From assembly GCF_988243305.1 (NCBI RefSeq), contig NZ_OZ547136.1: DNA of 64,000 nucleotides. One strand, given 5' to 3'. The notes under the pieces were generated by a model. That model ran no database searches and was not told the DNA's origin. It saw only the letters and a list, made by a program, of their open reading frames with translations. Every line of letters begins with the position of its first letter. The stretch's first letter is position 1. The position numbers were made by a program, and so were the translations under genes. Below, piece by piece: positions 50 through 47,652 of the stretch.

Positions 50-3000
50 TTAATACAACGTATCCGGTAAACGGAATTGGCTGAACAGACCACCGGTGAA
101 CGGGTTATCTTCGGTATCCACATGCACCCGATAAACCATCGCGCCGCCGTCCACGTTAAAGCGCACGTTAAAGGTGTCACTGGTCACGTTGGTCAACTGG
201 CCCGCGCCGAACAGGCGGAACTGCGCCCACGGTCCACTGAAAGCGATACTGCGCGGTGCTCCACCGCTGGTGCCAACCAGCGTCAGCTTGCTTTCATTGC
301 CTTCACGCATGTTGTTTGGCCAGACCAGATGGGCGGTATAGTTGCGTCCCTGGCTGTAGTCCACTAACTGGCCGTCCAGGTTAAGTACGCTGCGCCGTTT
401 ATTGCCGGAAAGCGACACCGTTTCCACGGCAAATTGTGTGCCCAGCCCGTTCTGCTGGCTGAAGAAGATGTCGCGGATTTTTTGCGCGGTATCCAGTTGT
501 TGTCGGATATCTTCACGGATCAGCACTCTGCCGTCGTCGCCAAAGGTCAGATCGTTTTCAAGGAACAGTCGCAGGTTGTCCTTATAGAAATTGTCCAGAA
601 TGCCATCCGGTTTAAAGAAACGTTCAAACGCATCCAGTGAGGCATCCTGTGAGGCGCGTGGATTAAACGGATAGTTACCGGCAAGCTGTTCGTTGAAGGG
701 TTTCACTACATTGTCGCGCCAGTCCACTTCCATGTAATGAACAGCTTCCACCATCACCACGTGCCAGGCCTGATCCGCCAGCTTGCCCACCCAGCGGTTA
801 AGCGGTGCAGGCAGGGTTTTTGCCATCTGGCGGGTGGCGAAGATTGGATCGCTGCTGTTTTGATCCAGGCGTAGCTGCACTGCTTTCAGCGCCGATTTTC
901 CCGGCACTGGCGAGTTCTGGATCGCCAGCAGGTAACGGTGCAGCTCGGTCAGTTGCTGGTACACGGCCTGTAGCGTACTCGCCTTGTCCTTTTGCTCCTC
1001 CAGTGCGCTGTTTTCCGGTGCGAACTCATGCCCCAGCCGGGACAACAGGCGGTAATCCATCTCATTTATCACCGCTTCCCGCGCCTTATCGTCCAGTTTG
1101 CCGGAGAGCGTCAGCGCGTGTGTATTATCGCGCAGCGCCGTCAGCGCACGCTGGAATGGCTGATCGCCGCTGATAATCTGCTCCAGCGCGTCGGTCAGCG
1201 CCGGCATGGCCTCATAGTCACGGACGTTGAGATTATCCATTCCGGCACGCCATGTAGCGGTATAGTCACTGAGGTACTGTTCAGTGATATGGCGCTGGAT
1301 CTCTTCACGGTCGGCCTCGCTGTAGGCGACGCTTTGCGTCAGGTTCAGCACCCACGAATCCAGCGCGGTCAACTCAACGAGACCGTCGTGTTGTTTGATA
1401 AAATAGCTTTGCAGGCCATAGCGGGTGAGAAACTGCGGGATCACCAGTTTTTCATCATTACCGGCGACGAACACGTTGTCGAAGGTGGGACCAACCTGGT
1501 CGCGCAAATTCAAATCGGCGGGCAACACGCTTAATGCTTTGGTGCGTAGGGTCTGGTAGACACGCTGGTATATCGGCAGTTTGCTCAGTTCATGTTGCGC
1601 ATTAATGACCGGTTTATCATAGGGTGTCCAGCGGCTGATGGCGTCGCTGTCGCCGCTCTGGCGCTGCGCGTGCCAGTCGGTGTGTTCCAGCGCATAGTCC
1701 AGATGTGCCATCAGTTGCGCCTGAATATCACGCTGGCCGTGAAATTCATTGCTCCAGCGCCGCGCCATGTACTGTTTTACCGCCTCGTTGTTGCGCCCAC
1801 TTTTGTCTTCCATCATGCGCACTACGCGCAGCACGGCGAGTTTTTCTTCACTCTCAGGCGGGGCATTGTTCAGATCCCGGATCAGGCCGTTCATTAACGA
1901 GGGGAGATAACGCTGCTCAAGAAGCTGAATGTAGGTTTGTTCCACATATGGCCCTACGCGGACGCCCTGGTACAATCCCATATCCGCCAGAAAACCGTGA
2001 TCGCGGTAATCGCCGTAGGCGAGGGTGGCATCGCGTACCGGGTTGAGTAACGGCAGTTGCAGATTGCCGAATTCATCCTTTCCCTGCGGTGGTGGTACGT
2101 CCATAAAGGCTTTAGCCTGTGCCAGTACGTTAACGCCGGACTGCCAGTTCTGGTTGTAATAATGGTGCCAGCTTCCGACCAGCAATGCCGCCAGTGCCGC
2201 GCCACAGGCGGAAAAGGCGGTCAGCCTGCGCCGGGAGCTGTTCAGCCAGACGCTGTTTTCACCTGCAAGGTTTGGCTCGGCTAGCAGGACTTCCGGGAAG
2301 AGGCGGCGGGTGAAATACGGCGTTGTTTCCACCAGGGGCCAGGTCGCCAGCGAGCTGTTGCCCAGCCCGTACTGGCGGGCGGCGGACTGCGTGAAAATAT
2401 CATCCACCTGGCCGCGCTGTAGCGAGGATGTGAGCCAGACGCCGCGCAGCATCACATCCATATTCTCGCCGTCCAGCAATGCGGCGAGCAGTGAAGTGAC
2501 GATTTCTCCCGTTCCCTGCATCTGACGGGAGAAGCTGAACACGGCGCTGCGTAGCGCAGCACCGGTCTGCACGAGCATCAGGTCTGACAGGGCCAGGTTC
2601 ATCTGTTGTCCCCAGGTCTGCCAGAAGGTGCTCAGCTCGCTGCGCCAGTCATCGTTTTCATGAGCGCGGCGGGTAAACGTGACGCCGAGGATCGCGTCGC
2701 GGTCTTTTTTATCCAGTGAATGGAACAGCGCGGCAAAGCCGGTCAGTAGATCCAGCCGGGTCAGCACCACATAAACGGGCAACCGGCAGTGCAGGCACTG
2801 GCGAATTTCCTGAAGTTGCTGACGCAGATTTTGTACCAGTGCTTCGCGACGGAGTTTATCCGCCGTCAGCAGTTCGGGAAGATCGAGCGTCAGGATCAGA
2901 CCATTGAGCGGCTGGCGTGCGCGCGTTTCCATCAGCCAGCCCAGCCAGTGTTCGCGCAGGCGGCGGTGGAGCAGATCATCCCCGCCGGGGGAGGTCAGTA

Positions 3001-3577
3001 CGCCGTCAACATCGAAAATTACTGCCTGGTTGCCCACTCGCGGTGTGATCAGCGGATGATATTCCACACCCCGGATGCTTTCCGGCATGTAAATAATGTC
3101 AGACGGAAAGCCCTCGCGCAGCAGCGTGCTTTTGCCGCTACCCGCAGGACCAATGACCATATACCACGGCAACTGCCACAGATAACTGCGGTTATCCAGA
3201 TGGCGGCGCAGGCGCAGCAGCCAGTGATCCAAATATTGCTGCTGGTGGTGGAGTTCCACGGTCAACGGATCTTTTTCTTCCTCCCGCTGCTGTTTCTGCT
3301 GTTTTTCCAGCTTTTGCAGACGCTTCATTACCCGCCAGGTGAGCCAGACCAGAGCGATAAGCCCCCAGACGGCGGTCGCCAGCCAGCGGTTTGCCAGCGG
3401 AGCCAGCCAGTGCTGCTCATAGAGCGTCCATTTTGGACCCTGCCACCAGATCCACACCAGCAGAAAAATCCATGCCAGCGCCAGCAGCCAGGCGGCGGAT
3501 ACCTTGAATCGCGGCATCGCTGGCCTGAGCGCAGATCTCAACGAGCTGAACAGTCGGGATGTGGGAAATTTGAACAC
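50..3577 (-). CDS. tssM: Type VI secretion membrane subunit TssM (IcmF family)
   Basis: 1175-aa ORF; N-terminal hydrophobic helices (AWLLALAWIFLLVWIWW); Walker A-like GPAGSGKST; size and position typical of TssM; last gene of the minus-strand T6SS operon. Confidence 0.9.
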   Translation of the reverse strand: MFKFPTSRLFSSLRSALRPAMPRFKVSAAWLLALAWIFLLVWIWWQGPKWTLYEQHWLAPLANRWLATAVWGLIALVWLTWRVMKRLQKLEKQQKQQREEEKDPLTVELHHQQQYLDHWLLRLRRHLDNRSYLWQLPWYMVIGPAGSGKSTLLREGFPSDIIYMPESIRGVEYHPLITPRVGNQAVIFDVDGVLTSPGGDDLLHRRLREHWLGWLMETRARQPLNGLILTLDLPELLTADKLRREALVQNLRQQLQEIRQCLHCRLPVYVVLTRLDLLTGFAALFHSLDKKDRDAILGVTFTRRAHENDDWRSELSTFWQTWGQQMNLALSDLMLVQTGAALRSAVFSFSRQMQGTGEIVTSLLAALLDGENMDVMLRGVWLTSSLQRGQVDDIFTQSAARQYGLGNSSLATWPLVETTPYFTRRLFPEVLLAEPNLAGENSVWLNSSRRRLTAFSACGAALAALLVGSWHHYYNQNWQSGVNVLAQAKAFMDVPPPQGKDEFGNLQLPLLNPVRDATLAYGDYRDHGFLADMGLYQGVRVGPYVEQTYIQLLEQRYLPSLMNGLIRDLNNAPPESEEKLAVLRVVRMMEDKSGRNNEAVKQYMARRWSNEFHGQRDIQAQLMAHLDYALEHTDWHAQRQSGDSDAISRWTPYDKPVINAQHELSKLPIYQRVYQTLRTKALSVLPADLNLRDQVGPTFDNVFVAGNDEKLVIPQFLTRYGLQSYFIKQHDGLVELTALDSWVLNLTQSVAYSEADREEIQRHITEQYLSDYTATWRAGMDNLNVRDYEAMPALTDALEQIISGDQPFQRALTALRDNTHALTLSGKLDDKAREAVINEMDYRLLSRLGHEFAPENSALEEQKDKASTLQAVYQQLTELHRYLLAIQNSPVPGKSALKAVQLRLDQNSSDPIFATRQMAKTLPAPLNRWVGKLADQAWHVVMVEAVHYMEVDWRDNVVKPFNEQLAGNYPFNPRASQDASLDAFERFFKPDGILDNFYKDNLRLFLENDLTFGDDGRVLIREDIRQQLDTAQKIRDIFFSQQNGLGTQFAVETVSLSGNKRRSVLNLDGQLVDYSQGRNYTAHLVWPNNMREGNESKLTLVGTSGGAPRSIAFSGPWAQFRLFGAGQLTNVTSDTFNVRFNVDGGAMVYRVHVDTEDNPFTGGLFSQFRLPDTLY

Positions 3578-3596: not shown

Positions 3597-5039
3597 TTAC
3601 TGTTCTGCCGTGAATTTTTGTTCCAGTGCTTTCAGCAGGGAAGGCTCCCATTCGGGTAGCATCATGTGTAAGCCTGTTTTGAAGAGCATCCGGTACTGCT
3701 GTTGTGCAAGCTGAACCATACCGGCTTCTTCCAGTAACTGCGCGCCGAAAAATTGGCGATGAAACTGGTTACGGGGATCACCTTCGGGCAGGTTTTCCAG
3801 ATACCGCAGCGCGGTTTCCAGCCCGTTCTCATCGAAGCACGCCCTGGCCGCCTGTAATTCTTCATCGGTCTGTACAGCTGCTGCGGTTTGGTTGCCTGAG
3901 CCCGATGGTGCCAGCCACTGTTTCGTCTGTTCGGACACAAACGGAGTGCGGTCGTTAAACAACAGGTTGATCAGTGCGGGCAGGCGAGCAAGAAAACTGG
4001 TAACTTCATCACGGATAGCATCCGCCACCTGTATATAACCAAGGCGCAACGCGGTCTGTGCTGAGAGGTAATGGCCGTCCAGCCAGTACGGGGCCAGCAG
4101 CAGGCTTTTTTCCACCTGCTGCCAAAGCGCCATGTCGGCATTGTTCAGTCGCGCCAGATAGTCATCCATCATATCTACAGGGAAAGCAGCCAGAGGGGTC
4201 CGGCCATCGCTTTCTGCCTGCGGGGTACTGGTGATGGTCTGCCACAGCGCATGGCGGCGCAGGCGGTAACCCAGCGGTGACTCCGGCTGACGTTCACAGA
4301 GAATGGCGGCTACCTTCAACAGGGTGTCGCGCCATGCTTTATCATCGTGGCTGTCCACGGTGACCTGCGGGATTGGAGTGGCTGCAACAGGAGGCTGAGC
4401 GGAAACTGTGTGCGGTAACATATCCGGTGCAGATCCGGTCGTGGCCTGCGGCGCAATGGCGGCGGTTCGTGCAGATGATGGCATTTCAGGCGCTACATCA
4501 CGAAACGCGCGCTGAAACAGAGTAAATAAATCGTCTGTCGCCTTAGCCAGCTCAGGCGCGTTGTGCGCCTGCCAGCACAGTGCCAGTTTTGCCAGCTCTC
4601 CCAGCAAAGCATCGCGCTGTGTTGTCACAGCATTCCCGGCAAAGTCATGAATGGCCGACTCAAAGCGTTTTATCACTTGGGTGGCGAAGCGTTTTTTGTG
4701 GGCCATGTTCTGCGGCGCGGCGCATGTCCAGTAGTGCTCTGTATATTGTGTCAGTATCCTGGAGGCCAGCAGAATATCACCGGCATGTTGCAGGGTACGC
4801 AGCAGGTGGGCCAGCAGGCGAAAATCTTTGGTTTCTGAGGCCAGAAGCATCAGGCCCCGGCGCTGAAGTTCGGGGATATCAAGCTGGCTGTGCGCCAGTG
4901 AACCGAGCTTGACGATTTCGCTGTCGATAAACTCCCAGTCTGCATTGCCATCATCAAGCGCGGCGGACAGCTTATCTTCCGGCAGGTTTTCCAGCAGGTG
5001 TGCAAGCCATATATCAGGATTACGTAAGTCCATTGCCAT
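3597..5039 (-). CDS. tssA: Type VI secretion protein TssA (ImpA family)
   Basis: ORF track gives 3597..5105; preferred start is the ATG at 5039 (MAMDLRNPDIW...), which has an AGGAGA Shine-Dalgarno 8 nt upstream on the minus strand and avoids overlap with the upstream gene; about 480 aa. Confidence 0.8.
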   Translation of the reverse strand: MAMDLRNPDIWLAHLLENLPEDKLSAALDDGNADWEFIDSEIVKLGSLAHSQLDIPELQRRGLMLLASETKDFRLLAHLLRTLQHAGDILLASRILTQYTEHYWTCAAPQNMAHKKRFATQVIKRFESAIHDFAGNAVTTQRDALLGELAKLALCWQAHNAPELAKATDDLFTLFQRAFRDVAPEMPSSARTAAIAPQATTGSAPDMLPHTVSAQPPVAATPIPQVTVDSHDDKAWRDTLLKVAAILCERQPESPLGYRLRRHALWQTITSTPQAESDGRTPLAAFPVDMMDDYLARLNNADMALWQQVEKSLLLAPYWLDGHYLSAQTALRLGYIQVADAIRDEVTSFLARLPALINLLFNDRTPFVSEQTKQWLAPSGSGNQTAAAVQTDEELQAARACFDENGLETALRYLENLPEGDPRNQFHRQFFGAQLLEEAGMVQLAQQQYRMLFKTGLHMMLPEWEPSLLKALEQKFTAEQ

Positions 5040-5043
5040 ATTT

Positions 5044-5787
5044 TTATTCTCCTGCCCAGTGGCAGGCGTCGCGTAGCGGCGCAATAACCCGCGCCAGCCC
5101 GTCAATGTTAAAGGTCAGCTTTCCGGCAGCATTGTCTGTGCCGGTATCAACCGTCAGTGTTTTAGCAGCGAATAGTTGCTTAATTTCATCAATACCGGAT
5201 AACCCCCGGCTGGACTCCAGCAGGGTGCCGTTCTCGCGCACAAACCAGTGGCTGCGCAATGCCCGGCTGTCGGCATTCAGGGTGACGGCGATATCATGGA
5301 CATCCAGAGGATGCATCAGCGCCACCTGCATCCGGGTGATATTGTCCACGCAACTGAACATCAGCACCGGGCGCGGCGGAACATGACCGATAGCCGGGGT
5401 GGTTATCACTACCGTCGGGCGTTCACCCGGCACCTGCGTCACCAGCAGCTCTGTGGTGCTGCCCTGGCGGCGTTTTTCCTGCTCTGTGGCGCGGGTCCAG
5501 GCTTCGCCCACAAAGCTGGCTTTGACCAGTGCGGCGTTGCCGAAGCCGGGCTGTTCCGGTGCAAGAATGCGGTCATAACAGTCAAGCCGCTCCAGCGCCG
5601 CAGATTCCCGCCGACAGGACTGCATGGCCTGTAACGTGGCTGTCGCATCCGGCGGGGGCGTGGTGGCGACGGCGACCGCCGCACCGGCCATTGACGATGT
5701 TTCTGCGGGCGCGGCACTGGCGGGTAAGCCCGCCATCAGGCCCGCGATAAACCATCCTGCCTGCCGGAAAACGCGCAACCTGCTCAT
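5044..5787 (-). CDS. T6SS-associated exported protein (VasI/TagO-like); family assignment tentative
   Basis: 247-aa ORF embedded between clpV and tssA; N-terminal signal-peptide-like segment (FIAGLMAGLPASAAPA); 4-nt overlap with the clpV stop suggests translational coupling. Confidence 0.5.
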   Translation of the reverse strand: MSRLRVFRQAGWFIAGLMAGLPASAAPAETSSMAGAAVAVATTPPPDATATLQAMQSCRRESAALERLDCYDRILAPEQPGFGNAALVKASFVGEAWTRATEQEKRRQGSTTELLVTQVPGERPTVVITTPAIGHVPPRPVLMFSCVDNITRMQVALMHPLDVHDIAVTLNADSRALRSHWFVRENGTLLESSRGLSGIDEIKQLFAAKTLTVDTGTDNAAGKLTFNIDGLARVIAPLRDACHWAGE

Positions 5788-8516
5788 AAAACCGTTTCAT
5801 CCTTTGTGACAAACTCGTCGTCCTGAGCATCTTCCACGTCTGCCGTGAACGCGCCGTCTGCCGCCGACAGGCGGATACGGGCAATCGCCGTGTTGGCTGC
5901 CATTTTCTGCAACAGCAGCAGCGAGAGCGGCGGCAGCATGTCGCCATCGATGACCGATTCCAGCATCCTCGCGCCGTTTTCCGCGCGGGTGACGCGGCTC
6001 ATGATTTCGTCCGTCACTTCCGGCTCAATAATCACGTCCGCGCCAAAGCGGCTGCGCAGCACGTTATCCAGACGGGCCAGTTTCCCGGCAATAATGGTGG
6101 CGAGCGTCTCTTTCGACAGCGGCAGGTATGGCACCACTTCCATACGCGCCAGCAGCGCCGGTTTAAAGAAGTCCGCCAGCACCGGATAGAGCACTTCCTG
6201 CATGGTTTCCGGGTCATCGGCGTGTTCGACAATCACCTGATAACCAAGGTTGGAGGTGAGGAAGAAAACGATGTTTTTACAGTCAATCAGGCGGCCTTCG
6301 CCGTCTGCCATCTCGCCCTTGTCGAACGCCTGGTAGAACAGGTTGAGGACATCCGGGTGCGCTTTTTCCACTTCATCGAGCAGCACCACCGAGTAGGGTT
6401 TCTGGCGGATCGCTTCGGTCAGTACGCCGCCTTCGCCATAGCCGACATAGCCCGGAGGGGAGCCAATCAGCCGCGAGACGGTGTGTTTCTCCTGGAACTC
6501 GGACATATTGATGGTGGTCAGGTACTGGCGACCGCCGTAGAGCAGCTCTGCCAGTTGCAGGACGGTTTCGGTTTTACCCACGCCGCTGGGGCCAGCCAGC
6601 AGGAACGCGCCGAGCGGGCGTCCCGGACGGCGCAGGTCGGCGCGTGCGGTCAGCAGGTGTTTATGCAGGCTGGCAATTGCCAGGTCCTGGCCTTTGATGG
6701 TGTCACCAAGCCACTTCGGCAGGTCGGTGATGACCGACATTTCATTCTGCGACAGGCGGTTAAGCGGTACGCCGGTCCATTCGGCAATCACCGCCGCAAT
6801 CTGTTTTTTATCGACGTGCGGGGAAACCAGCAACCGGTCGTTATGCAGGGCGTCCAGTTCGGCAGTGAGTTGTACTAGCTGCTGCACCGGGGAAACTGTT
6901 TCAGCGGTCTCTTCCGGCTGTGTACTGCCCGCATCATCAGCCGGTGCGGTACCGGTATTATCCTGTTCTGACTCTGGCGGCGTATCCACTACGGCATCTG
7001 TGTCCTCTGTCACACCCAGCAATAGCTGGCGCAGCGCGATAATTTCCCGTACCAGCTTCTGCTGCTGGTGCCAGGCCGCTTCCAGTTCATCCAGCGCCGT
7101 CAGCGTTTCATCGTACTGCACCAGCACCTCAGTCATCCGTGAAGTGTCGGTACGCAGCCCGATGCGAAGCTCGCGCTCAAGCTGGCGAATTTCCGCCTCC
7201 TGCTGGTGGCTCAGGGTGGTCAGCGCCGAGATTTGCTTCGGTGGCGATGACAGGTTGATGGCCACACGGGCGCAGGCGGTATCCAGCACATCAATGGCTT
7301 TGTCCGGCAACTGACGCCCGGAGAGATAACGCTCGCTCAGCGTTGCTGCGGCCTGCAAGGCGTCATCATCAATCAGCACGCCGTGAGACTGTTCATAGAC
7401 CGCCGACAAACCGCGCAGAATAATGGTGGCTTCGGTGGCGTTGGGTTCGCTGATCTTCACTAACTGGAAGCGGCGCGACAAAGCTGCATCTTTCTCGAAG
7501 TATTTTTTGTATTCGCTCCAGGTTGTGGCGGCGATGGTTTTCAGTTCGCCACGCGCCAGCGCCGGTTTGAGCAGGTTGGAGATATCCAGCCCGCCCTGCT
7601 GGTTGCCCGCGCCAATCAGAGTATGTGCTTCGTCGATAAACAGAATGACTGGCACCGGAGAGGAAATGACCTCCGCCATCAGCCCCTTGAAGCGTTTTTC
7701 AAACTCACCTTTCACCGACGCACCGGCCTGTAATGCGCCCAGGTCAAGGGTCATAATATCGGTGTTTTTCAGCTTGTCCGGCACCTGGCCTGAGACAATA
7801 CGCAGCGCCAGCCCTTCGATTAAGGCACTTTTACCCACACCCGCTTCACCCACCACCACCGGATTGTTTTTACGACGGCGGCAGAGAATGTCGATCATCA
7901 GGTCGATTTCATGGTCACGGCACAGTACAGGGTCAAGTTTGCCGTTACGGGCATCTTCGGTCATGTTTTTGGCGTAGCGGGCAAGCCCGCTGTCGCCGGT
8001 TTCAGGCGTGCCGGGTGCCTGTCCGCCAACCTGGTTCACGGATTCGGCGGACTCTTTAGTCCATGACGCGAAATCCTGCTGTAACTGGTCGCGGTTTATG
8101 GCCGTCAGCAGACGGGCAGCAGCGGGTGGAATATAGCGCAGCGGTGAATGCAGCAGAGCCAGCAGCAGCACGCCGCCGCGTAGTTCGCTGTGCTGCATCT
8201 GGGCCGAGGCCAGCAGCCATGACTCCTTGAGCCATTCGACCAGCATCGGGGAGAAGCTGGGATAGCCTTCGGCGGAACGTCCGCTGGGATAACTCTCCAC
8301 GGTCAGCGCCTGGCGTAGCTCCTCCGCACTGATGCCTGTGCGTTCGGTAATTACCCTTACGTCGTTGCGCGGGATAGACAGCATCTGCAACAGCACATGG
8401 GCAACGGTGATCTCACTGGCCTGCTGGCTCATACACTCCGAGGCAGCCATTTCCAGCGCCTGTTTTGCAAAGGGGTTAAGCCGCTTTACCAGCGTGGCTA
8501 AATCAATCTGGATCAT
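5784..8516 (-). CDS. clpV: T6SS AAA+ ATPase ClpV (TssH)
   Basis: 910-aa ORF with two AAA+ modules: Walker A GEAGVGKS and GPSGVGKT; Clp N-domain-like N-terminus. Confidence 0.9.
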   Translation of the reverse strand: MIQIDLATLVKRLNPFAKQALEMAASECMSQQASEITVAHVLLQMLSIPRNDVRVITERTGISAEELRQALTVESYPSGRSAEGYPSFSPMLVEWLKESWLLASAQMQHSELRGGVLLLALLHSPLRYIPPAAARLLTAINRDQLQQDFASWTKESAESVNQVGGQAPGTPETGDSGLARYAKNMTEDARNGKLDPVLCRDHEIDLMIDILCRRRKNNPVVVGEAGVGKSALIEGLALRIVSGQVPDKLKNTDIMTLDLGALQAGASVKGEFEKRFKGLMAEVISSPVPVILFIDEAHTLIGAGNQQGGLDISNLLKPALARGELKTIAATTWSEYKKYFEKDAALSRRFQLVKISEPNATEATIILRGLSAVYEQSHGVLIDDDALQAAATLSERYLSGRQLPDKAIDVLDTACARVAINLSSPPKQISALTTLSHQQEAEIRQLERELRIGLRTDTSRMTEVLVQYDETLTALDELEAAWHQQQKLVREIIALRQLLLGVTEDTDAVVDTPPESEQDNTGTAPADDAGSTQPEETAETVSPVQQLVQLTAELDALHNDRLLVSPHVDKKQIAAVIAEWTGVPLNRLSQNEMSVITDLPKWLGDTIKGQDLAIASLHKHLLTARADLRRPGRPLGAFLLAGPSGVGKTETVLQLAELLYGGRQYLTTINMSEFQEKHTVSRLIGSPPGYVGYGEGGVLTEAIRQKPYSVVLLDEVEKAHPDVLNLFYQAFDKGEMADGEGRLIDCKNIVFFLTSNLGYQVIVEHADDPETMQEVLYPVLADFFKPALLARMEVVPYLPLSKETLATIIAGKLARLDNVLRSRFGADVIIEPEVTDEIMSRVTRAENGARMLESVIDGDMLPPLSLLLLQKMAANTAIARIRLSAADGAFTADVEDAQDDEFVTKDETVL

Positions 8517-8525
8517 AAGATGTCC

Positions 8526-9299
8526 TTATCGGAGTAATTTATTGAGCTGATGCAGAATATCCTGTGTCTGGCTGTCCAGACGCAGCAGATAAAACAGATA
8601 AAATACGGCCAGCACAACAAGACCGCCGCACATTACATGCCTGATGGTCAGCCGCCGGATTAACTGATAACGCCCGCCCTGTATGTTGTTCTTCTGGTGA
8701 AGCAGCGGAAATGGCGCGTCACCGCGCAGTTTGTGCAGGGCATGGTGCAGGCGCTGGTAGATCCGCTCAAATTCATCCTGTTGCTGAATGGCAACCTTGT
8801 AGCGCCCGCGAAAGCCGAGCGAAAAACAGAGATATAAAAATTCCAGCAGATCCTGGTAACGTACCGGCTCCCGGATCAGGCGTTCGAGCAGGATAAACAC
8901 TTTCTCGCCGCCCCAGGCTTCGTTATGAAAATGAACCAGCAGCGACTGTTTGATCCATTCGTTTTTGTTGGACCAGCCGTTGCCCAGCGCCGCTTCGTCA
9001 ATAAACGTGCAGAGAATGTAGCGGAACGAAACAATGACGCCCGGCTCGTAACCCTGCTCCTGGAGTAGTTGTTCCACAGCCTGGACATCGGTTACCACCT
9101 GGGCAAACAGATGTTCCGGCATGGCCTGGCTGTTCATGGTGGACAGACGCATCACCATGCCGAGCAACGGCGTGGCGGCGTCAATCATTGGGTTCAGGCT
9201 GTTGCCGCGAAGGGCGAGACGATACTGACGTCCTGATGTTCCGCTCTCCGGCTCCATGGGAAAAACCGACGGTTCACCCATATCGCTGATATCGCTCAT
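8526..9299 (-). CDS. tssL: T6SS membrane protein TssL (DotU family)
   Basis: 257 aa; C-terminal transmembrane helix (GGLVVLAVFYLFYLL); position between tssK and clpV. Confidence 0.85.
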   Translation of the reverse strand: MSDISDMGEPSVFPMEPESGTSGRQYRLALRGNSLNPMIDAATPLLGMVMRLSTMNSQAMPEHLFAQVVTDVQAVEQLLQEQGYEPGVIVSFRYILCTFIDEAALGNGWSNKNEWIKQSLLVHFHNEAWGGEKVFILLERLIREPVRYQDLLEFLYLCFSLGFRGRYKVAIQQQDEFERIYQRLHHALHKLRGDAPFPLLHQKNNIQGGRYQLIRRLTIRHVMCGGLVVLAVFYLFYLLRLDSQTQDILHQLNKLLR

Positions 9300-9303
9300 T
9301 CAC

Positions 9304-10650
9304 TTATCCCCTTATCGCCCAGAGCTGAAGGTTCAGATCGGGGAAGGTGCCGGAGATATGCAGCGCCAGCGCGCCCGCTTTTATCACGTCCTGCCAGGCT
9401 GGGGTGCCTTTTTCCAGTTCGAAGTAAACATAACCTTCATGCCAGGGCAACTGACGCGGCGCAGCGGTAAGCGTGTGCAGCGGAATACCCGGCACCTGCA
9501 CGCTGACCACGCTGCGGATTTTGTCGGTAGCGGCCACTTTCGACTGCTGGATGAACTGGCGCTGCACCTGGTCGTAGGGCATCCTGGCGCGCACTGCCAG
9601 TACCAGCTTGCAGGACTGCAACAGTGTGGGATCGCTGATGGTGGCGATCCAGGTCCCCTCTGAAAAGAACAGCGGCAGATTCTGCGCACGCGGTACCAGC
9701 ACGGTATTGAGTGCGCGCCGCAGTTCCGGAATTACTGTTCTGGTGAAGGTCGCGGTAAGATCCCGGTGATTATACGGCTCCACGGTGCAGGGCAGGCGAT
9801 TACCTTCGGTGAAGGTCATCAGTTCTCCCAGCAGCCCCACCAGATCCCGGTAGAAGGCTTCCGGATGCAGCGTGTGCAGTTGGGAACGATGCGTGAACTG
9901 CATTTGATGGCGGTTAAGCATCTGCAACATCATAAATTCGGCCACATCGGCGATCCCGCTCTGTTCAGGCGAACCGATGCGCCCGGCCAGGTCGGCGGCG
10001 CGGGTGGCAAGTAGCCCCTGCACCTCGCCGGAGAATGCCCCGAGCAACCCGCTGACACGGACGGCCTGAATGGTGGGAATAAAGGTGTTGTCCAGCACCA
10101 GTGCGCCGGTAGCATTTTTATTGAGGATACGGCACAGGGGGAGGGTCACCATCGCGCTGAGATCATCTGCGCCGCTGACTATCCTGGGGATCAACTGCCC
10201 CAGACCGACCGGCTGTTCGTCGCCTTCGTCAGTGTGAAAATCACGGACGCGGGTATGGGTGAGGCGGTAACGTTCCGTGCCCTGACCGGCGCTGTGCAAC
10301 CCCTGGATTTCATTGATCACGTCGCTGATTACAGGCAGTGCCAGATAAATATTGTGGCTCTCTTTCGATGAAAGGGTTCCCGGCTGGAAAGGTTCCGGCA
10401 GCAGATCCTGGTCGGGAATGCTGAATACGGTGCCGTCAGGCATACAGCCCGCCGCACGGTCAATCATGATTTTGCCCTGGGCAAGCAGTTCGGTATTGAT
10501 GGAGAGTTCTGTAAAGCCCCAGAAAAAATCACCCTGAGCATCCAGACGACGGGTCAGCAGGTACTCGCAGTGACGCTGCTGTTGCTGAAAATGCTGCGGC
10601 AGGGCAAACAGCCCTTCCTGCCAGATCACCTTGTTTTTCATTGTTGCCAT
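9304..10650 (-). CDS. tssK: T6SS baseplate protein TssK
   Basis: 448 aa; N-terminus VIWQEGLFALPQHFQQQ typical of TssK; start could instead be the ATG 9 nt downstream (MKNKV...). Confidence 0.85.
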   Translation of the reverse strand: MATMKNKVIWQEGLFALPQHFQQQQRHCEYLLTRRLDAQGDFFWGFTELSINTELLAQGKIMIDRAAGCMPDGTVFSIPDQDLLPEPFQPGTLSSKESHNIYLALPVISDVINEIQGLHSAGQGTERYRLTHTRVRDFHTDEGDEQPVGLGQLIPRIVSGADDLSAMVTLPLCRILNKNATGALVLDNTFIPTIQAVRVSGLLGAFSGEVQGLLATRAADLAGRIGSPEQSGIADVAEFMMLQMLNRHQMQFTHRSQLHTLHPEAFYRDLVGLLGELMTFTEGNRLPCTVEPYNHRDLTATFTRTVIPELRRALNTVLVPRAQNLPLFFSEGTWIATISDPTLLQSCKLVLAVRARMPYDQVQRQFIQQSKVAATDKIRSVVSVQVPGIPLHTLTAAPRQLPWHEGYVYFELEKGTPAWQDVIKAGALALHISGTFPDLNLQLWAIRG

Positions 10651-10652
10651 CG

Positions 10653-11177
10653 TCAGTTTTCCTCTTTTTTCATCTCAATCGCACTGGCGCGGATATGCAC
10701 CAGCAGGCGATAGTGGTGGCCGATACTTTCTACCGGCTCAATTTGTTTCCATTCTGTGGCCTGATCGTCTGAAAAATAGGCAATGACACCGATATAACCG
10801 GTTTTCTCATCCAGCTTGATCGGCGGCAGTGTTTTTACGGTGTCCGGCAACAGGTTGAAGTCCTGGTGATCGATATAGTTCTTCCCCAGCACGTCGGGCA
10901 GCGCGGTGGTGGCAATCTGATCGTAATCGGCGGCCTGGAATTTGGAGTCGTCGCTCAGATACACCAACTGGACATCCACCGGCGCGGCTTCGCCGTCCGC
11001 CGTCAGGTTGCTGTCCGGCTCGGTCAGCAGCGTGACGGTCAGTTCGGTTGACTGCTCCATCAGCTTTCCGACCTGAATATCCGGATTGCGGATCACTTGG
11101 CTGATTTTTTTCGCTGTTTCACAGCCAGTTAACACAACGCTCATCAGAACGCAGGCCAGAAACGCTTTGCCGTTCAT
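10653..11177 (-). CDS. tssJ: T6SS outer-membrane lipoprotein TssJ
   Basis: 174 aa; signal peptide with lipobox LTGC. Confidence 0.85.
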   Translation of the reverse strand: MNGKAFLACVLMSVVLTGCETAKKISQVIRNPDIQVGKLMEQSTELTVTLLTEPDSNLTADGEAAPVDVQLVYLSDDSKFQAADYDQIATTALPDVLGKNYIDHQDFNLLPDTVKTLPPIKLDEKTGYIGVIAYFSDDQATEWKQIEPVESIGHHYRLLVHIRASAIEMKKEEN

Positions 11178-12466
11178 GCTTCCGGCTCCCGCTGTTTTTC
11201 GCGCAGCACTCGGTCATAGACCTGGGCATAAACTTCATTGAACAGCATTTCAAATCCCTGCTGTCGGCTGGAGGCCAGTTCATCGTAATAGTTGCTGTAC
11301 ATCTGCCATGCCCAGGCGTTGTCCATTTTCTGGCGCAGCTCATGGCTGCGGCGGTATTGCGCAAAGCGGCGCATCAGGTTGCCCGGCGAGAAGGCGTCCA
11401 GCATGACACGCAACGCTTCCACAATCGCCGCCCGGTTGGCCTCTTCATGATGCCGGATGTTGCGCAGGCTTTCGGCGATGGCCGCAGGTGCTGCGAGATG
11501 TACCGGGCTTTTACCCTCGGCGAACATGACGTTCAGCGCGGTGGCATAGTCCATATCAAGGCGCAACGGGTTGTCTTCCAGTGGACGCAGGTGTTTATCC
11601 GACAGGCTGTTCTGTTGTTGTTGCAGACTCAGCAATCCCTTAATGGCGGCCTGCAACGCCCGTCCGGCCTCTTCGAGAAACTCATCCGCATCCTGAGAAT
11701 TGTGCAGCGTCAGCGGACACTCCATACCGCGCAGCAGCGGGGTTACGGCCAGGTGGTACTGCGCCATGGCAGAAAATTCATCGCCGTCCTCATGACGGGC
11801 ATTGCCGGGTGGCAGATCCATAAACGGCGTGTTGATCCCGTTTGCACCTGTCAGATCGGAGGCGGTGGCAACGGGCCGGGAAACGCGTGGGGCGATCGGA
11901 TCATCTGCCACCATCAGGCTTTCCGTCTGGAGTGCCTGGAGCGGATCGCTGGAAAAACCGTGCGCCACCGTGGGGGCAAGCTGATGCTGGAACGGCATTC
12001 CCGGATACGCCGGTTGTCCCTCGGTGGTCAACAGGGTGTCCGCCAGACTGTCGCGGTTCATTACAATCGTTTCCGGGGTCGCCATCCGCTCGTCATAGGT
12101 AACAGCTGCACCGTCATGCAGAAACACTTTCAGCGCCAGTGCGCCGAGCTGGATCTCATCCCCCTGGCGCAGGCGGATGAGCGCATCGGAAGAGACCGGG
12201 GCCAGATTAATCATCAGTCCCGGCGTCAGGCACCGCAGGCAATAGGCTCCGTCGTGCCGGATAACGGTACAGGCACGCGCAGCAATGCTTCCCGCCCGGT
12301 CCTGTACCTGCCAGTGACATTCCGGCGTATGGCCAATATCACCGCCGTTTTCGCTGAACAGGCATTTTGCGGCGCGTCCGCTTTCCAGTTCGTTGCCATT
12401 CATCACCTGTAAAGTCAGTGAGGCCTGGCGGGATTGCTGTTTTTCCTCAGCCATAAGTGGTTCCAT
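11174..12466 (-). CDS. tagH: T6SS-associated FHA-domain protein TagH (Fha)
   Basis: N-terminal FHA-like domain (...IGHTPECHWQVQD...CTVIRHDGAYCLRCL...GDEIQLGALALKV); ORF track start 12616 is probably too far upstream; preferred ATG at 12466 (MEPLMAEEKQQ) lies 5 nt from the tssG stop. Confidence 0.8.
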   Translation of the reverse strand: MEPLMAEEKQQSRQASLTLQVMNGNELESGRAAKCLFSENGGDIGHTPECHWQVQDRAGSIAARACTVIRHDGAYCLRCLTPGLMINLAPVSSDALIRLRQGDEIQLGALALKVFLHDGAAVTYDERMATPETIVMNRDSLADTLLTTEGQPAYPGMPFQHQLAPTVAHGFSSDPLQALQTESLMVADDPIAPRVSRPVATASDLTGANGINTPFMDLPPGNARHEDGDEFSAMAQYHLAVTPLLRGMECPLTLHNSQDADEFLEEAGRALQAAIKGLLSLQQQQNSLSDKHLRPLEDNPLRLDMDYATALNVMFAEGKSPVHLAAPAAIAESLRNIRHHEEANRAAIVEALRVMLDAFSPGNLMRRFAQYRRSHELRQKMDNAWAWQMYSNYYDELASSRQQGFEMLFNEVYAQVYDRVLREKQREPEA

Positions 12467-12470
12467 AGAA

Positions 12471-13520
12471 TTATTCCCTGATTCGGATTGTGATGGCGGG
12501 CGGTACTTTCGGCTGACCAATAAAGCTGGTTCTGCCGAGGCGGGAGCTGGCCGGATCGCCAAGGTGCATCCCTTTAGCCTGCTGTGGTGCCAGGCACAGC
12601 CGTAAATCCCAGGCAAACTGGTCGCGCAGAATAAAGGAAAGGAACATGGTCAGCGGCAGGTGATTTTCGCCATCGGGTAAAAATGAGAGATAACGCTCCC
12701 GCGACAGGCCGCCAATCTGCAACAGGAATTTTCCGCTGCGATCCGGCACCCGTGCGCCGAGGGTAAAATTAACGCCGAGTATGGAGCGTCCCGGAATATG
12801 TCCAGCCGTTTTTCCTTTCGGATTACGTACACCCAGCCGGTTCTGGTGTGCCGGATCAATGGCGACTTTACGCAGTTGCCAGCGTTCAATGGTGACATCC
12901 GGCAAATCAAAACAGTGCGACACAAGATTACAGATGACCTCCGGCGCGCGGCCTGGTGTTGCCAGAATTCCGGCGTAGGCCAGCATTTTGCTGTGGTTAA
13001 TGGCAAGCCTGTCACGCACGCTCTGATTACCCAGCCCGACCAGTGCGTACATGCGCTGTGAAAAGGTGTCAGTACCGCCGTTACGAAAGCAGATGTAGTA
13101 GCGGTATTTGCGCCAGGCATGATAGGCAAACTGTGTCCAGCGGTGGCTGAATAGATCGAGAAATTCTTTCAGGCCGTCTTCGTTCTGTGCGGACTCCTGC
13201 GCCATCTGATCCAGATAATAGCCCGGTAGCGGCGACTGGCTGCCGGAAAAACCCAGGAACCGGGTTTGCAGTACATACTGTCCGTTCTGGCTACGGGAAA
13301 GCGCACTCAGGTCCGTACCCGGAAAACCGATACTGGCGTCAGAGCTGAAACGCACGATCTCCCGGGCAGGCTCGGTACGCAGGGAAATGTCCTGGCCCGG
13401 CGTGCCATACCGACGGTACAGCGCCTCCATTAGCACATAGAAATTGCAGTTGCGCACATCCGCCGGTAACGGCGGTTTTGCCGCTATATCAGGGCGTGCT
13501 GGCCCATTTTCTCCTGCCAT
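12471..13520 (-). CDS. tssG: T6SS baseplate protein TssG
   Basis: 349 aa; operon position between tssF and tagH; the 37-nt overlap with tssF means the true start could be the internal ATG at 13430. Confidence 0.8.
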   Translation of the reverse strand: MAGENGPARPDIAAKPPLPADVRNCNFYVLMEALYRRYGTPGQDISLRTEPAREIVRFSSDASIGFPGTDLSALSRSQNGQYVLQTRFLGFSGSQSPLPGYYLDQMAQESAQNEDGLKEFLDLFSHRWTQFAYHAWRKYRYYICFRNGGTDTFSQRMYALVGLGNQSVRDRLAINHSKMLAYAGILATPGRAPEVICNLVSHCFDLPDVTIERWQLRKVAIDPAHQNRLGVRNPKGKTAGHIPGRSILGVNFTLGARVPDRSGKFLLQIGGLSRERYLSFLPDGENHLPLTMFLSFILRDQFAWDLRLCLAPQQAKGMHLGDPASSRLGRTSFIGQPKVPPAITIRIRE

Positions 13521-15343
13521 TCCCAGGACTCCTGACTTTCCGTGTTAATGATTTTCAGACAGTGATACGAATTGATGCTGGCGTAGAGGGCAAAAAAGTG
13601 CGAGAGCACGGTACCCAGAAGATAAATTTCACCTTCGCAGATAAACGGATCGGGACGTATCCACAGCGTGGTCGCCAGCCCGCGAACCGGTACGCCTTTA
13701 AACAACCTGTCAACAGGTTTGGTTTCGAGTTTTTCTATGGCATCCAGTTTCTGGCGTGACAGTCTGGCCCGCTGCGGATGGTGAGCACCCGGCAGGTCGA
13801 AGGTCCGCAGGATCTGGATCAGTGTCTCCCTGTCCAGCAGGGAGAGGTAGTTCAGGTTCATCGCGGAAATCAGCGACCAGTGCATGTCGCCGTCCGTGAC
13901 CGGCCAGAGCGGTTGTGTCGGGCGCGTAACATTATGAAATGAGGCCACCGCCGGGTTTTTGTTGACGGCCACGCAGATATCGCCGGTATGCAGCCGGGCA
14001 GGGATCATACGGTTGGTACAGATTAATGACGTGGTGATCACATCATCATTAAACCGTGAGCTGTCCGGAATGCTGCCGTCCGCATGGACAAAGGCGATGG
14101 AATGTTCAAGCCCATGGTGAAGCAGGGACGTTTTAGTCCGGTGATGCCAGTAGACGACTTCCCGCTGGCGGCTGTACTCCATCTGGTGCTGGAAACTTTC
14201 AAATTCGGGCCAGACACGCACCTGGCTGCCGGGGCTGGAATCAGTCCCTGAAACTTTGATTTTACTGGTGACTGTGCTGACCTGAAAAATGTCATAGGCG
14301 TCCGGATGCTTATGGCTGGCGCGCAGCGGGTATTCCGCCATCCGCCCATCCGGCCTGACGGGTTCCGCATAATGCGTAAACAGGTTAATGGCTGGCGTAC
14401 AGTGCAGACGCAGCGAATCCTGGCGCAGCTTGATGTCGGCAGGTAATGGGCGGTTAAAGTGCAGGCGCAGCGTAAACGCACTCACCGGGAAATCGTCTGG
14501 TAGCGGCGCAACATCGCGCAGATGGAAAAAGAAGAAGGCTTCGGGATAGCAGAAATACTCCTGAAGCACGCGGTAGCCGTTGTGGACATTTTTCGGCCAC
14601 GGCAGCAGGGCATCCTGGTTGTCAAAACCCGCAGCATCCAGCCACAGATCCGGCAGCGGCAGGCTGTGCTCTCCGGCAATCAGTTCCGCATCCATCAGGC
14701 ATTCGCAAAACCACAGATAAAGCTGGTGTCGGGTATAATCGTCTTCATTACCCAGCCAGAACGTGATTTTGTTCAGGTCAAGCATGGCGGGGGAGACATT
14801 GTTATCTGCGGTAAAACTGATATCTATGATGCCTTCTTTCAGACTGCTGGCGTTGCGGGTGTCGAGAATGCGCAGCGGTTGCAGCCAGATATCGCGCGCC
14901 AGCGTGAAATGGCAGGCTACGGAAGAAACGATTTTATCATGATTGTCAGCCAGCACCTTCTGAGCAGCCGGGGAGGACTTTTCTGATCGGCTTCTGATCA
15001 GTTCATTACGGCAGACCTGAACAGGGACTTTTAACTGATCGGTTTTGGGTTCATAGGCAATAACCGTCATGGCCGGAACCGGGCGTAAATAGTTTGCCCA
15101 CAGCATACGGATCAGCCCATGGGTGAATTCGGGAAATTCGTCTTCAAGTTTCTGGCGCAGGCTACCGGACATAAAGGCAAAGGCTTCCATCAGTCGCTCC
15201 ACATCCGGATCACCCTCTTTCTCGGCCAGAAAATGGGCCAGATGCGGTTTTTCCTGCGCCAACAGTTTGCCAAGCTGGCGCAGATAATCCAGTTCTTCGC
15301 GGTAGTAACGTTCTTCAAAAGCCACAGAGATCACTCCACACAA
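13484..15343 (-). CDS. tssF: T6SS baseplate protein TssF
   Basis: 619 aa; N-terminal EERYYREELDYLRQLG motif typical of TssF. Confidence 0.85.
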   Translation of the reverse strand: MCGVISVAFEERYYREELDYLRQLGKLLAQEKPHLAHFLAEKEGDPDVERLMEAFAFMSGSLRQKLEDEFPEFTHGLIRMLWANYLRPVPAMTVIAYEPKTDQLKVPVQVCRNELIRSRSEKSSPAAQKVLADNHDKIVSSVACHFTLARDIWLQPLRILDTRNASSLKEGIIDISFTADNNVSPAMLDLNKITFWLGNEDDYTRHQLYLWFCECLMDAELIAGEHSLPLPDLWLDAAGFDNQDALLPWPKNVHNGYRVLQEYFCYPEAFFFFHLRDVAPLPDDFPVSAFTLRLHFNRPLPADIKLRQDSLRLHCTPAINLFTHYAEPVRPDGRMAEYPLRASHKHPDAYDIFQVSTVTSKIKVSGTDSSPGSQVRVWPEFESFQHQMEYSRQREVVYWHHRTKTSLLHHGLEHSIAFVHADGSIPDSSRFNDDVITTSLICTNRMIPARLHTGDICVAVNKNPAVASFHNVTRPTQPLWPVTDGDMHWSLISAMNLNYLSLLDRETLIQILRTFDLPGAHHPQRARLSRQKLDAIEKLETKPVDRLFKGVPVRGLATTLWIRPDPFICEGEIYLLGTVLSHFFALYASINSYHCLKIINTESQESWEWQEKMGQHALI

Positions 15344-15756
15344 TAGCGTTGATGGTTGTCCAGCAAAATGTCAAATTCAAACACTCCCCTGGTCTCGCTG
15401 ACATCGATCGTAGCCACAATATGAAAACGCAGTTCCACAGGGGCGTATTCATCCGGTGCCGCAGCCGTAACAACAACATCGGTAATACGAGGTTCGTAAT
15501 GTAAAATGCACTGGCTAATGGACTTACGGATTTCTCGTCTGAAATCGCTGGAGGCCAGCGATTCATCATTTAAATCAGTAATCCCCAGCTCCGGTGAGCC
15601 ATAACAACTGCCGGAGCGGGTATTCAGGACCTGTCGCAGGTTACGTCTGATGGAACGTATCAGTGCTTCTTTTGGATTCTGATATGAAGGCGGATTTGCC
15701 GCCTCACGGATACGTTCAAAAAGACTGCCGGTTGGTCCTGAATCCCGTCTTTGCAC
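15331..15756 (-). CDS. tssE: T6SS baseplate protein TssE (gp25-like)
   Basis: 141 aa; gp25/GPW-like small baseplate protein downstream of tssC. Confidence 0.85.
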   Translation of the reverse strand: MQRRDSGPTGSLFERIREAANPPSYQNPKEALIRSIRRNLRQVLNTRSGSCYGSPELGITDLNDESLASSDFRREIRKSISQCILHYEPRITDVVVTAAAPDEYAPVELRFHIVATIDVSETRGVFEFDILLDNHQRYCVE

Positions 15757-15760
15757 CGGA

Positions 15761-17245
15761 TTATTCCTTATCCAGTCGTCCGACCAGGCTCAGGTCGAAA
15801 CTGGCACCCATGTATTTAAAATGCGGTCTGACAGAAATCGCGACCTGGTACCAGCCCGGCTCACCATCCACATCCAGTACCTCGATCTTAGCCTGACGCA
15901 AAGGCCGGTGGCTGCGGACTTCGGCAGGCGGATTTTCCTGGTCAGCAACATACTGGCGAATCCAGGTGTTCAGCTCACGCTCCAGGTCACTACGTTCTTT
16001 CCATGAGCCAAGCTGTTCGCGCTGAATTACCTTGATGTAATGCGCTAACCTGCTGATAACAAACAAGTATGGCAGCTGGGTGCCGAGTTTATAGTTGGTC
16101 TCCGCAGCCTTGCCTTCGGGGGTTTTGGGGAATGTTTTGGGTTTCTGCACCGAGTTGGCCGAGAAAAAGCACGCATTATCAGACCCTTTACGCATGGTCA
16201 GTGTGATAAAGCCCTCTTCCGCCAGCTCATACTCTCTCCGGTCAGTGATCAACACTTCAGTCGGAATTTTTGCCTGCATTTGCCCCATGGATTCATACAG
16301 ATGCACCGGGAGGTCTTTGACTGCGCCGCCGCTGGAAGGGCCAATAATATTTGGGCACCAGCGATACTTAGCAAAACTTTCCGCCAGGTTGGCGGCCAGT
16401 AAAAACGAGGTATTCCCCCACAGATAAGACTCATGACTCTGGCTGACATCTTCATGGTAACGGAAGGTTTTGACAGGGTTTTCATCCGGTGAGTAAGGGT
16501 GGCGCAGCAGGAACCGGGGGGCGGTCAGGCCCAGGTAACGGGAATCTTCCGATTCACGCAGGGCGCGCCAGCGGGAGTAGGCCGGGCCTTCAAAGATGGC
16601 ACCCGGTTCTTTGATCCCCGGTAACTCTGTCCATGAATCCAGACCGAAAAATTCGGATGATACTGACGACAGGAACGGGCTGTGCGCCATCGCGCTGACC
16701 TGGCTGATATATTTCAGCAACTTCATATCCGGCGTGGTGTTCTTAAAGGCAAAGTTGCCGATTACCGCCGCCACTGGCTCACCGCCAAATTGTCCGTAAC
16801 CGCTTGAATATACATGCTTGTAATACGCAGACTGCGTGATTTCAGGTGCAAATTCGAAATCATCCAGCAGTTCTTCCTGAGTGACATTCAGGAAATGGAC
16901 TTTGATGTTTTCCCGTGTATCCGCGCGTTCAACCAGCAGCTTCAGCGAGCGCAGCAGGGATTCCAGTTCCTGAAACTCCGGGGCATGAATAATGGCATCC
17001 ATCTGCCTGCTGGTTCGGGCATCAATATCAGCAATCATGGCGTCAACGGCCAGGATATTGATAGGTTCAGCGCTACTGTCGCCCTGTAACATGGCGGCAA
17101 TAAAGGCGCTCACGCCCTGGCGGGTGATATCGTAGCTTTCTGATTTAGGCTGGACGCGGGTTTGCGCCATGATTTCATCAAGCAGAGATGGGGGCGCGGC
17201 GGTTTGAGACGCGCTGACGGGAGCAATTTCTTCCTTTACTGACAT
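15761..17245 (-). CDS. tssC: T6SS contractile sheath large subunit TssC (VipB)
   Basis: 494 aa; size and sequence character of TssC; follows tssB. Confidence 0.9.
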   Translation of the reverse strand: MSVKEEIAPVSASQTAAPPSLLDEIMAQTRVQPKSESYDITRQGVSAFIAAMLQGDSSAEPINILAVDAMIADIDARTSRQMDAIIHAPEFQELESLLRSLKLLVERADTRENIKVHFLNVTQEELLDDFEFAPEITQSAYYKHVYSSGYGQFGGEPVAAVIGNFAFKNTTPDMKLLKYISQVSAMAHSPFLSSVSSEFFGLDSWTELPGIKEPGAIFEGPAYSRWRALRESEDSRYLGLTAPRFLLRHPYSPDENPVKTFRYHEDVSQSHESYLWGNTSFLLAANLAESFAKYRWCPNIIGPSSGGAVKDLPVHLYESMGQMQAKIPTEVLITDRREYELAEEGFITLTMRKGSDNACFFSANSVQKPKTFPKTPEGKAAETNYKLGTQLPYLFVISRLAHYIKVIQREQLGSWKERSDLERELNTWIRQYVADQENPPAEVRSHRPLRQAKIEVLDVDGEPGWYQVAISVRPHFKYMGASFDLSLVGRLDKE

Positions 17246-17267
17246 ACTGAAAATCCTTCTGTGAAAA

Positions 17268-17771
17268 TTATTTCTGAACGGCGATACCCAGTTCCTGGAT
17301 CAGCTGCTCGCGGCTGTCTTCGTTTTCCAGTAGCGCCTGAAGTTGTGCGCGGAAGGCCGGAATATTGCCTAGTGGAGACTTAAGTGCGACCAGTGCCTCA
17401 CGCAGCTCCAGCAGGCGCTTTATTTCCGGCACCTGACTGGCAATATGGTCAGGAGAAAGGTCATCCATAGATTTGACTTTCAGGTTGACGTACATTTGCT
17501 CATTGGGAGCGTCACTGAGTTCAGCCGGAACAACAAACTCCCGTTCAATGTCAGCTTCTGAAATGACTGCGTTGAGGTTATAGCGGTTGATAGCAATGGC
17601 AGTTCGCTCATCCAACGGCGTGTTATCTGGTTTCCCTTTCAGATTGCCGGTGATCAATAAATTCAGCGGCAATTCGATATCAGCAGCCACCCCATCAACT
17701 TTTGGTGTATACCGAACGCTGATTCTTTCTTTCGGCGCGACACTGCCGCCATTGTTGTTCATTTTGCTCAT
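17268..17771 (-). CDS. tssB: T6SS contractile sheath small subunit TssB (VipA)
   Basis: ORF track 17268..17822 starts at a TTG; preferred start is the ATG at 17771 (MSKMNNNGGSVAPKERISVRY...), giving about 167 aa; first gene of the operon. Confidence 0.85.
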   Translation of the reverse strand: MSKMNNNGGSVAPKERISVRYTPKVDGVAADIELPLNLLITGNLKGKPDNTPLDERTAIAINRYNLNAVISEADIEREFVVPAELSDAPNEQMYVNLKVKSMDDLSPDHIASQVPEIKRLLELREALVALKSPLGNIPAFRAQLQALLENEDSREQLIQELGIAVQK

Positions 17772-47576: not shown

Positions 47577-47652
47577 GCCGATATAGCTCAGTTGGTAGAG
47601 CAGCGCATTCGTAATGCGAAGGTCGTAGGTTCGACTCCTATTATCGGCACCA
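47577..47652 (+). tRNA. thrW: tRNA-Thr (anticodon CGU)
   Basis: 76-nt sequence GCCGATATAGCTCAGTTGGTAGAGCAGCGCATTCGTAATGCGAAGGTCGTAGGTTCGACTCCTATTATCGGCACCA with D-loop, CGT anticodon in ATTCGTAAT loop, T-loop GGTTCGACTCC and encoded CCA. Confidence 0.9.

Follow-up and report, generated by a model that had tools for sequence, protein, structure and literature searches.

A TagH protein without phosphothreonine pocket residues in the kinase-less aspV type VI secretion cluster of Escherichia coli

The 64,000-nucleotide stretch analysed here, hereafter the window, belongs to contig NZ_OZ547136.1 of RefSeq assembly GCF_988243305.1 and is part of an Escherichia coli chromosome. Its minus strand carries a cluster of type VI secretion system (T6SS) genes, among them tagH (11174..12466), which encodes an FHA-domain protein. 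In this TagH all four residues that define a canonical phosphothreonine-binding FHA domain (Arg, Ser, His and Asn) are replaced, and searches of the window found no Ser/Thr kinase, PP2C phosphatase or TagF. Because the pocket residues are all lost, TagH is likely to work independently of phosphorylation. We consider it probable, at roughly 0.75, that TagH of the aspV T6SS is a constitutive phosphorylation-independent adaptor in a system devoid of the whole threonine-phosphorylation module. The locus is the ordinary TagH gene of the E. coli aspV T6SS island, known from enteroaggregative E. coli 042 and many extraintestinal pathogenic E. coli strains (PMC2808357), and its tagH DNA is 100% identical to that of two E. 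coli chromosomes.

The gene had been predicted to encode TagH, and this identification held. The TagH model (NCBIfam TIGR03354, COG3456) spans the whole protein (model positions 1-420 of 420) with 423 bits against a cutoff of 120, and the FHA fold, the T6SS_FHA_C domain and the position between tssG and tssJ in a T6SS cluster agree with membership of this family. Pfam T6SS_FHA_C (PF20232) is matched with 141 bits and Pfam FHA (PF00498) with just 23.9 bits (cutoff 20.7); in close TagH relatives a precomputed PF00498 match is absent. A single-sequence search of the PDB with E. coli TagH returned no FHA domain, only chance ankyrin matches, which marks the protein as divergent. Residues are numbered below for the 426-residue form that starts at ATG 12454. 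The FHA-fold domain (residues 10-116; 12107..12427, minus strand) has kept its fold and lost its phosphothreonine pocket. It is followed by a predicted disordered linker (residues 117-224; 11783..12106, minus), the least conserved part between genera, and by the C-terminal helical domain T6SS_FHA_C (residues 225-423; 11186..11782, minus), which is the best conserved. AlphaFold2, run with an 85-sequence family alignment, predicts a well-packed beta-sandwich for residues 11-114 with a predicted local distance difference test (pLDDT) score of 96-98, C-terminal helices for residues 225-422 with a pLDDT of about 90, and values below 50 in the linker at residues 143-167 and 179-217. As regards the C-terminal domain, no non-FHA structure was among the best PDB matches.

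The four substituted pocket codons span 12221..12331 on the minus strand; they were located through hmmalign columns anchored on canonical relatives, and the codons themselves were checked. The canonical Arg after the Gly of the beta3-beta4 loop (R70 in Rad53, R32 in Fha1) is His42 in E. coli TagH (codon 12329-12331). In the S-x-x-H motif the Ser (S48 in Fha1) is Ala58 (12281-12283) and the His is Ala61 (12272-12274), and in the T/S-N-G loop the Asn is Pro78 (12221-12223), with the preceding Thr77 retained. Where canonical members show R/S/x/H/T/N, E. coli TagH reads His42/Ala58/Ala59/Ala61/Thr77/Pro78. The canonical members that anchor the alignment read GGTIGR ... VSSLHA ... DESTNG, and two independent checks support the assignment of columns. 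Aligned with Mycobacterium tuberculosis FhaA (3po8; E 9e-5), the family profile places a consensus Ser under the Arg of 'IGR' and a Gly under the Asn of 'TNG', and the columns reproduce the published equivalence of Fha1 R32/S48 with Vibrio cholerae S38/K54 (PMC8993066). Among the 84 nearest family representatives (clusters at 50% identity), the Arg is present in four, and the same four hold the full tetrad. The original prediction had called TagH 'normally' the partner of a PpkA/PppA switch, which is too strong given the rarity of the canonical pocket in these representatives and the fact that FHA clusters without a kinase have been on record since 2009.

Loss of the pocket has not been accompanied by decay of the domain. 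Between orthologues 53-98% identical, with unsaturated synonymous divergence, the ratio of non-synonymous to synonymous substitution rates (dN/dS) is 0.12-0.24 in the FHA domain and 0.05-0.07 in the C-terminal domain. Four residues (G41, W48, N83 and D99) are invariant in 85 of 85 aligned TagH-family members, canonical or not. These sequence comparisons indicate that the FHA domain is under purifying selection. As a separate observation, Trp48 (window 12311-12313) lies six residues past the canonical Arg position and occurs in all 85 sequences, whether the pocket is kept or lost; it is not a general FHA feature, since FhaA has Phe, and may mark a TagH-specific contact surface.

The original prediction had also remarked that no kinase or phosphatase gene lies between tssB and tssM, and this proved correct: all 13 genes of that stretch are recognised T6SS components. 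Beyond them, no kinase, PP2C or TagF was found in the 64-kb window by pattern matching, by hidden Markov models (HMMs), by a Pfam scan of the unannotated open reading frames (ORFs) of the island or among the genes that RefSeq annotates on collinear genomes spanning all of it. Neither a PROSITE-type pattern for kinases nor a motif for PP2C matched the window or any of 83 related loci; since the kinase pattern missed one of three true kinases, HMMs were relied on instead. The first kinase and PP2C models, built from three close sequences, were judged too narrow, and models were rebuilt from 8, 6 and 4 diverse sequences, the training set being kinases, PP2Cs and TagFs found beside canonical tagH genes. 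The rebuilt models recovered all training sequences, including the kinase positive controls in 8 canonical loci; across 13,505 ORFs drawn from 100 sources, one of which was the window, they gave no other match at E <= 1. TagF (DUF2094) had no HMM match and is not annotated at the aspV locus, and a Hanks-type kinase was found neither in the window nor in the flanking DNA of a 99.9% identical relative.

The state of the pocket varies together with the remainder of the phosphorylation module. A Ser/Thr kinase is encoded in the cluster at all eight loci that have a canonical-pocket TagH and readable context, most of which also encode PP2C and TagF. Five of these are plasmid or chromid loci with an annotated kinase (Azospirillum, Bradyrhizobium, Paraburkholderia, Pseudoalteromonas and Leisingera), where PP2C and TagF are each present in four of the five. 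The other three are metagenomic loci with the order tagH-tssJKLM-PP2C-kinase-x-tssA; a fourth such contig is too short to judge. By comparison, none of the four pocket-less loci with a complete cluster (E. coli, Bartonella, V. scophthalmi and Rahnella) has a kinase, and PP2C and TagF are absent from them too. No kinase was seen in a further 84 partial pocket-less loci (4 look-ups and 80 genome loci), in which the DNA beyond tssM is outside view; the 80 genome loci belong to the nearest relatives, from Enterobacterales and Pasteurellaceae, lack the canonical pocket throughout, and were taken with 10 kb on either side of tagH, which makes them end inside tssM.

A phosphoacceptor follows the same division. 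In Agrobacterium tumefaciens, PpkA phosphorylates Thr14 of TssL within DLPTVVEI (PMC3953482), and a corresponding x-T-V-[VIL] motif is present in the N-terminal tail of TssL at 8 of 8 canonical loci. The tail comparison found no T-V-[VIL] motif in E. coli TssL or in 88 of 89 pocket-less loci. The comparison was made on the TssL tail; the equivalent of T362 in Pseudomonas aeruginosa Fha falls in the non-alignable TagH linker. An attempt to read the pocket class from the pattern of tblastn matches to the two halves of canonical TagH gave the wrong answer for Leisingera, which is canonical by its aligned residues, and the class was therefore always taken from aligned residues. Separately, the start annotated for tssL at the Azospirillum ramasamyi plasmid locus (11383) is probably too far downstream; the conserved tail motif ERTVLMPTPGGRR is present in the same frame a short way ahead of the annotated Met.

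Three other explanations have to be weighed. According to one, which the original prediction had raised, a ppkA/pppA pair lies just outside the window beside tssM and TagH is a normal phosphothreonine reader. In canonical clusters PP2C and kinase genes do often follow tssM directly, but the E. coli locus differs. A relative genome, 99.93% identical over window positions 1-20719, holds after tssM a VasL/ImpA_N gene, hcp, a hypothetical gene with no Pfam match, tRNA-Asp (aspV), dnaQ and rnhA. Because this flank has neither kinase nor phosphatase, the option is refuted for the island, whose other border is yafV; the pocket residues, moreover, are gone, and the idea is almost certainly wrong. Another explanation treats the FHA domain as a remnant in decay that no longer has a function, or the whole of tagH as dispensable in the cluster. 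The Pfam FHA score barely above threshold and the lost pocket would fit such a view; the dN/dS of the FHA domain across genera, its tightly packed predicted fold, the residues invariant throughout the family, the full-length tagH in 576 of 578 E. coli carriers and the requirement of tagH for Hcp secretion in V. cholerae (PMC8993066) all speak against it. A vestigial gene was rejected on dN/dS and conservation, and we regard this explanation as highly improbable.

The main surviving rival is a chromosomal kinase encoded elsewhere, for example YegI, YeaG or SrkA, that marks a T6SS component which a non-canonical TagH pocket then reads, as has been proposed for V. cholerae. Several lines of evidence, some of them bearing on this rival directly, weigh against a phosphorylation-independent adaptor. 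E. coli has several Ser/Thr kinases, YegI among them (bioRxiv 10.1101/819920). In V. cholerae the substitutions S38A and K54A lower Hcp secretion, which indicates that the FHA loops still matter there, and the authors favour a phosphorylated partner (PMC8993066), an option kept open by a 2023 review (PMC10482370). The contrast in kinase content between canonical and pocket-less loci (8/8 vs 0/4; Fisher p ~0.002) is overstated because the lineages are phylogenetically clustered, and the 80 genome loci are no test of the position after tssM since their flanks stop short of it. The sensitivity of the PP2C model is limited, as it missed a divergent 667-residue PP2C of Azospirillum, and the argument that E. 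coli TagH no longer binds phosphothreonine stops at the pocket residues. On the other side, His, Ala, Ala and Pro stand in place of the four residues that build or hold the phosphate pocket, TssL has no acceptor motif, and phosphorylated TagH went undetected in V. cholerae (PMC8993066). At the Arg and Ser positions E. coli has H/A where V. cholerae has S/K, and this difference even between the two argues against a conserved alternative pocket. We therefore judge a kinase elsewhere unlikely, and prefer phosphorylation-independent action of TagH; the suggestion to this effect in the original prediction gains support from the degenerate pocket and from the missing TssL motif, kinase, phosphatase and TagF, and we infer it from these.

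Under the adaptor reading, the aspV system would operate without a PpkA-type kinase, a PppA/PP2C phosphatase, the TagF brake, the T-V-[VIL] motif of TssL and the phosphothreonine pocket of TagH. Coupled translation would keep production of TagH matched to that of TssG and TssJ, and the conserved C-terminal helical domain would let TagH aid assembly of the membrane complex and of the baseplate. A phospho-independent surface of the still-selected FHA beta-sandwich may also be used. Firing would be controlled at transcription, not by a kinase/phosphatase switch. We lean, with somewhat less assurance, towards a broader proposal in which the phosphorylation module is one evolutionary unit, so that kinase, PP2C, TagF, the TssL T-V-[VIL] motif and the TagH pocket occur together or not at all; the FHA domain of vas-type systems (E. 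coli, Salmonella, Vibrio, Yersinia, Photorhabdus and Pasteurellaceae) would then be a pseudo-FHA unable to read phosphothreonine. If this is true, the V. cholerae TagH residues S38 and K54, called 'conserved phosphopeptide binding residues' by Wang 2022 (PMC8993066), need re-interpretation.

Clusters that contain TagH and no kinase are already known, the absence of PpkA/PppA having been explicitly stated three times, and the present locus is an ordinary example with an existing annotation. This absence was described in 2009 for the FHA-bearing sub-group that contains V. cholerae (Boyer 2009; PMC2660368) and for the FHA-only cluster of Salmonella SPI-19 (Blondel 2009; PMC2907695), and E. coli O157 and Yersinia pestis were later named as further examples (Wang 2022; PMC8993066). 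In V. cholerae, whose genome lacks ppkA and pppA, TagH is required for Hcp secretion and no TagH phosphorylation was detected (PMC8993066, PMC10482370). Its VasC/TagH (VCA0112) has the same FHA and T6SS_FHA_C architecture and lies in the vas cluster (sub-group I of Boyer 2009) in the same order, tssG-tagH-tssJ-tssK-tssL-clpV ... vasI-tssA-tssM-vasL. That cluster likewise has no ppkA, pppA or tagF, and the Arg and Ser of its FHA pocket are replaced. The E. coli cluster differs in having no vasH sigma-54 activator, and its pocket is more degenerate (H/A/A/P) than that of Vibrio-type relatives, which keep the His (S/K/.../H). Comparison with Vibrio and Rahnella loci showed that the vas-type order tssBCEFG-tagH-tssJKL-clpV-(vasH)-vasI-tssA-tssM-vasL is matched by the E. 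coli locus except for the missing vasH.

The Fha proteins of P. aeruginosa (Fha1), Serratia marcescens and A. tumefaciens belong to the same family (TIGR03354/COG3456), share the two-domain layout and are likewise encoded next to tssJ, tssK and tssL. The phosphothreonine-binding Arg and Ser are kept in Fha1 (R32/S48) and in A. tumefaciens Fha (R30/S46), whereas they are lost in E. coli TagH. Fha loci of the threonine-phosphorylation pathway encode a kinase, PP2C and usually TagF; the E. coli locus has none of these, and its TssL is without T-V-[VIL]. A route that does not depend on phosphorylation also exists for the recruitment of Fha in P. aeruginosa and A. tumefaciens (PMC5995506). Type III secretion offers examples of an FHA fold that lacks the phosphate pocket, such as MxiG-N (PMC3162421). 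The type III inner-ring folds (MxiG-N, YscD and PrgH) nevertheless have no sequence-level homology to TagH and no T6SS_FHA_C domain, and are membrane-anchored ring proteins of a machine other than the T6SS.

In the searchable literature, whose coverage is incomplete, we did not find a statement that the pocket is completely lost or that its state co-varies with kinase and TssL motif; these represent a refinement and not a new kind of system. The discovery weight of the locus is small, the gene being already named tagH by RefSeq in 578 complete E. coli genomes, and its value is interpretive. The Arg in 'IGR' of TagH together with T-V-[VIL] in the TssL tail offers a sequence rule that predicts post-translational switching of a T6SS. 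A hunt for the hidden kinase of vas-type systems is probably futile, and work on TagH in these systems should treat it as an assembly factor independent of phosphorylation.

The 13-gene operon reads, on the minus strand, tssB, tssC, tssE, tssF, tssG, tagH, tssJ, tssK, tssL, tssH, vasI, tssA and tssM, with hcp and vgrG divergent to its right. Its upstream part (tssF, tssE, tssC and tssB; 13484..17771, with tssB at 17268-17771) was taken from the RefSeq annotation of a collinear locus. It is followed by tssG (12471..13520; TIGR03347, 350 bits), which stops 4 nt upstream of ATG 12466 of tagH. For the tagH reading frame, which ends at 11174, possible starts are TTG 12616, ATG 12466 and ATG 12454. 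The second gives 430 residues and has an AGGGA Shine-Dalgarno sequence at good spacing, about 8 nt upstream; RefSeq uses the next ATG (12454; 426 residues), and each of these two ATG codons is acceptable. The stop codon of tagH overlaps the ATG of tssJ (10653..11177; TIGR03352, 142 bits) as ATGA, an overlap that suggests translational coupling of the two genes. One NCBI genome encodes a 600-residue TagH-TssJ fusion (PF20232 + PF12790), 99% identical to the window TagH, which is probably a read-through or frameshift at this overlap. The operon continues with tssK (9304..10650; TIGR03353, 417 bits), tssL in its short DotU form (8526..9299; PF09850, 197 bits), tssH/clpV (5784-8516), vasI (5044-5787), tssA (3597-5039) and tssM (50..3487; TIGR03348, 946 bits), the last core gene within the window.

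Across complete E. coli genomes tagH is present in 578 of 5,426, always on the chromosome, and in 576 of the 578 at least 80% of the query is covered. In 29 E. coli genomes tagH is just 60-80% identical to that of the window, a sign that E. coli may have a second lineage of vas-type T6SS. In each of the assemblies of Citrobacter youngae ATCC 29220 and Citrobacter sp. wls619 there are two tagH copies that diverge from one another.

Between 22000 and 26000 the GC content is low, at 36-37% where the T6SS core has 55-58%, and the GC skew is strongly positive. The cargo linked to vgrG lies in this segment and comprises DUF2169 and DUF2859 proteins, a Tox-PAAR-like protein, a C39-peptidase-like small ORF, ISAs1 transposase remnants and small hypothetical proteins; the segment looks like an exchangeable effector/immunity cassette. 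From 27000 to 64000 the window is collinear with the yafV-ecpC stretch of core E. coli genes. Within this part a tRNA-Thr gene (CGT anticodon; 47577-47652) has an integrase fragment and a truncated SDR gene after it in the collinear genome, and the site resembles what is left of an element that had integrated at the tRNA.
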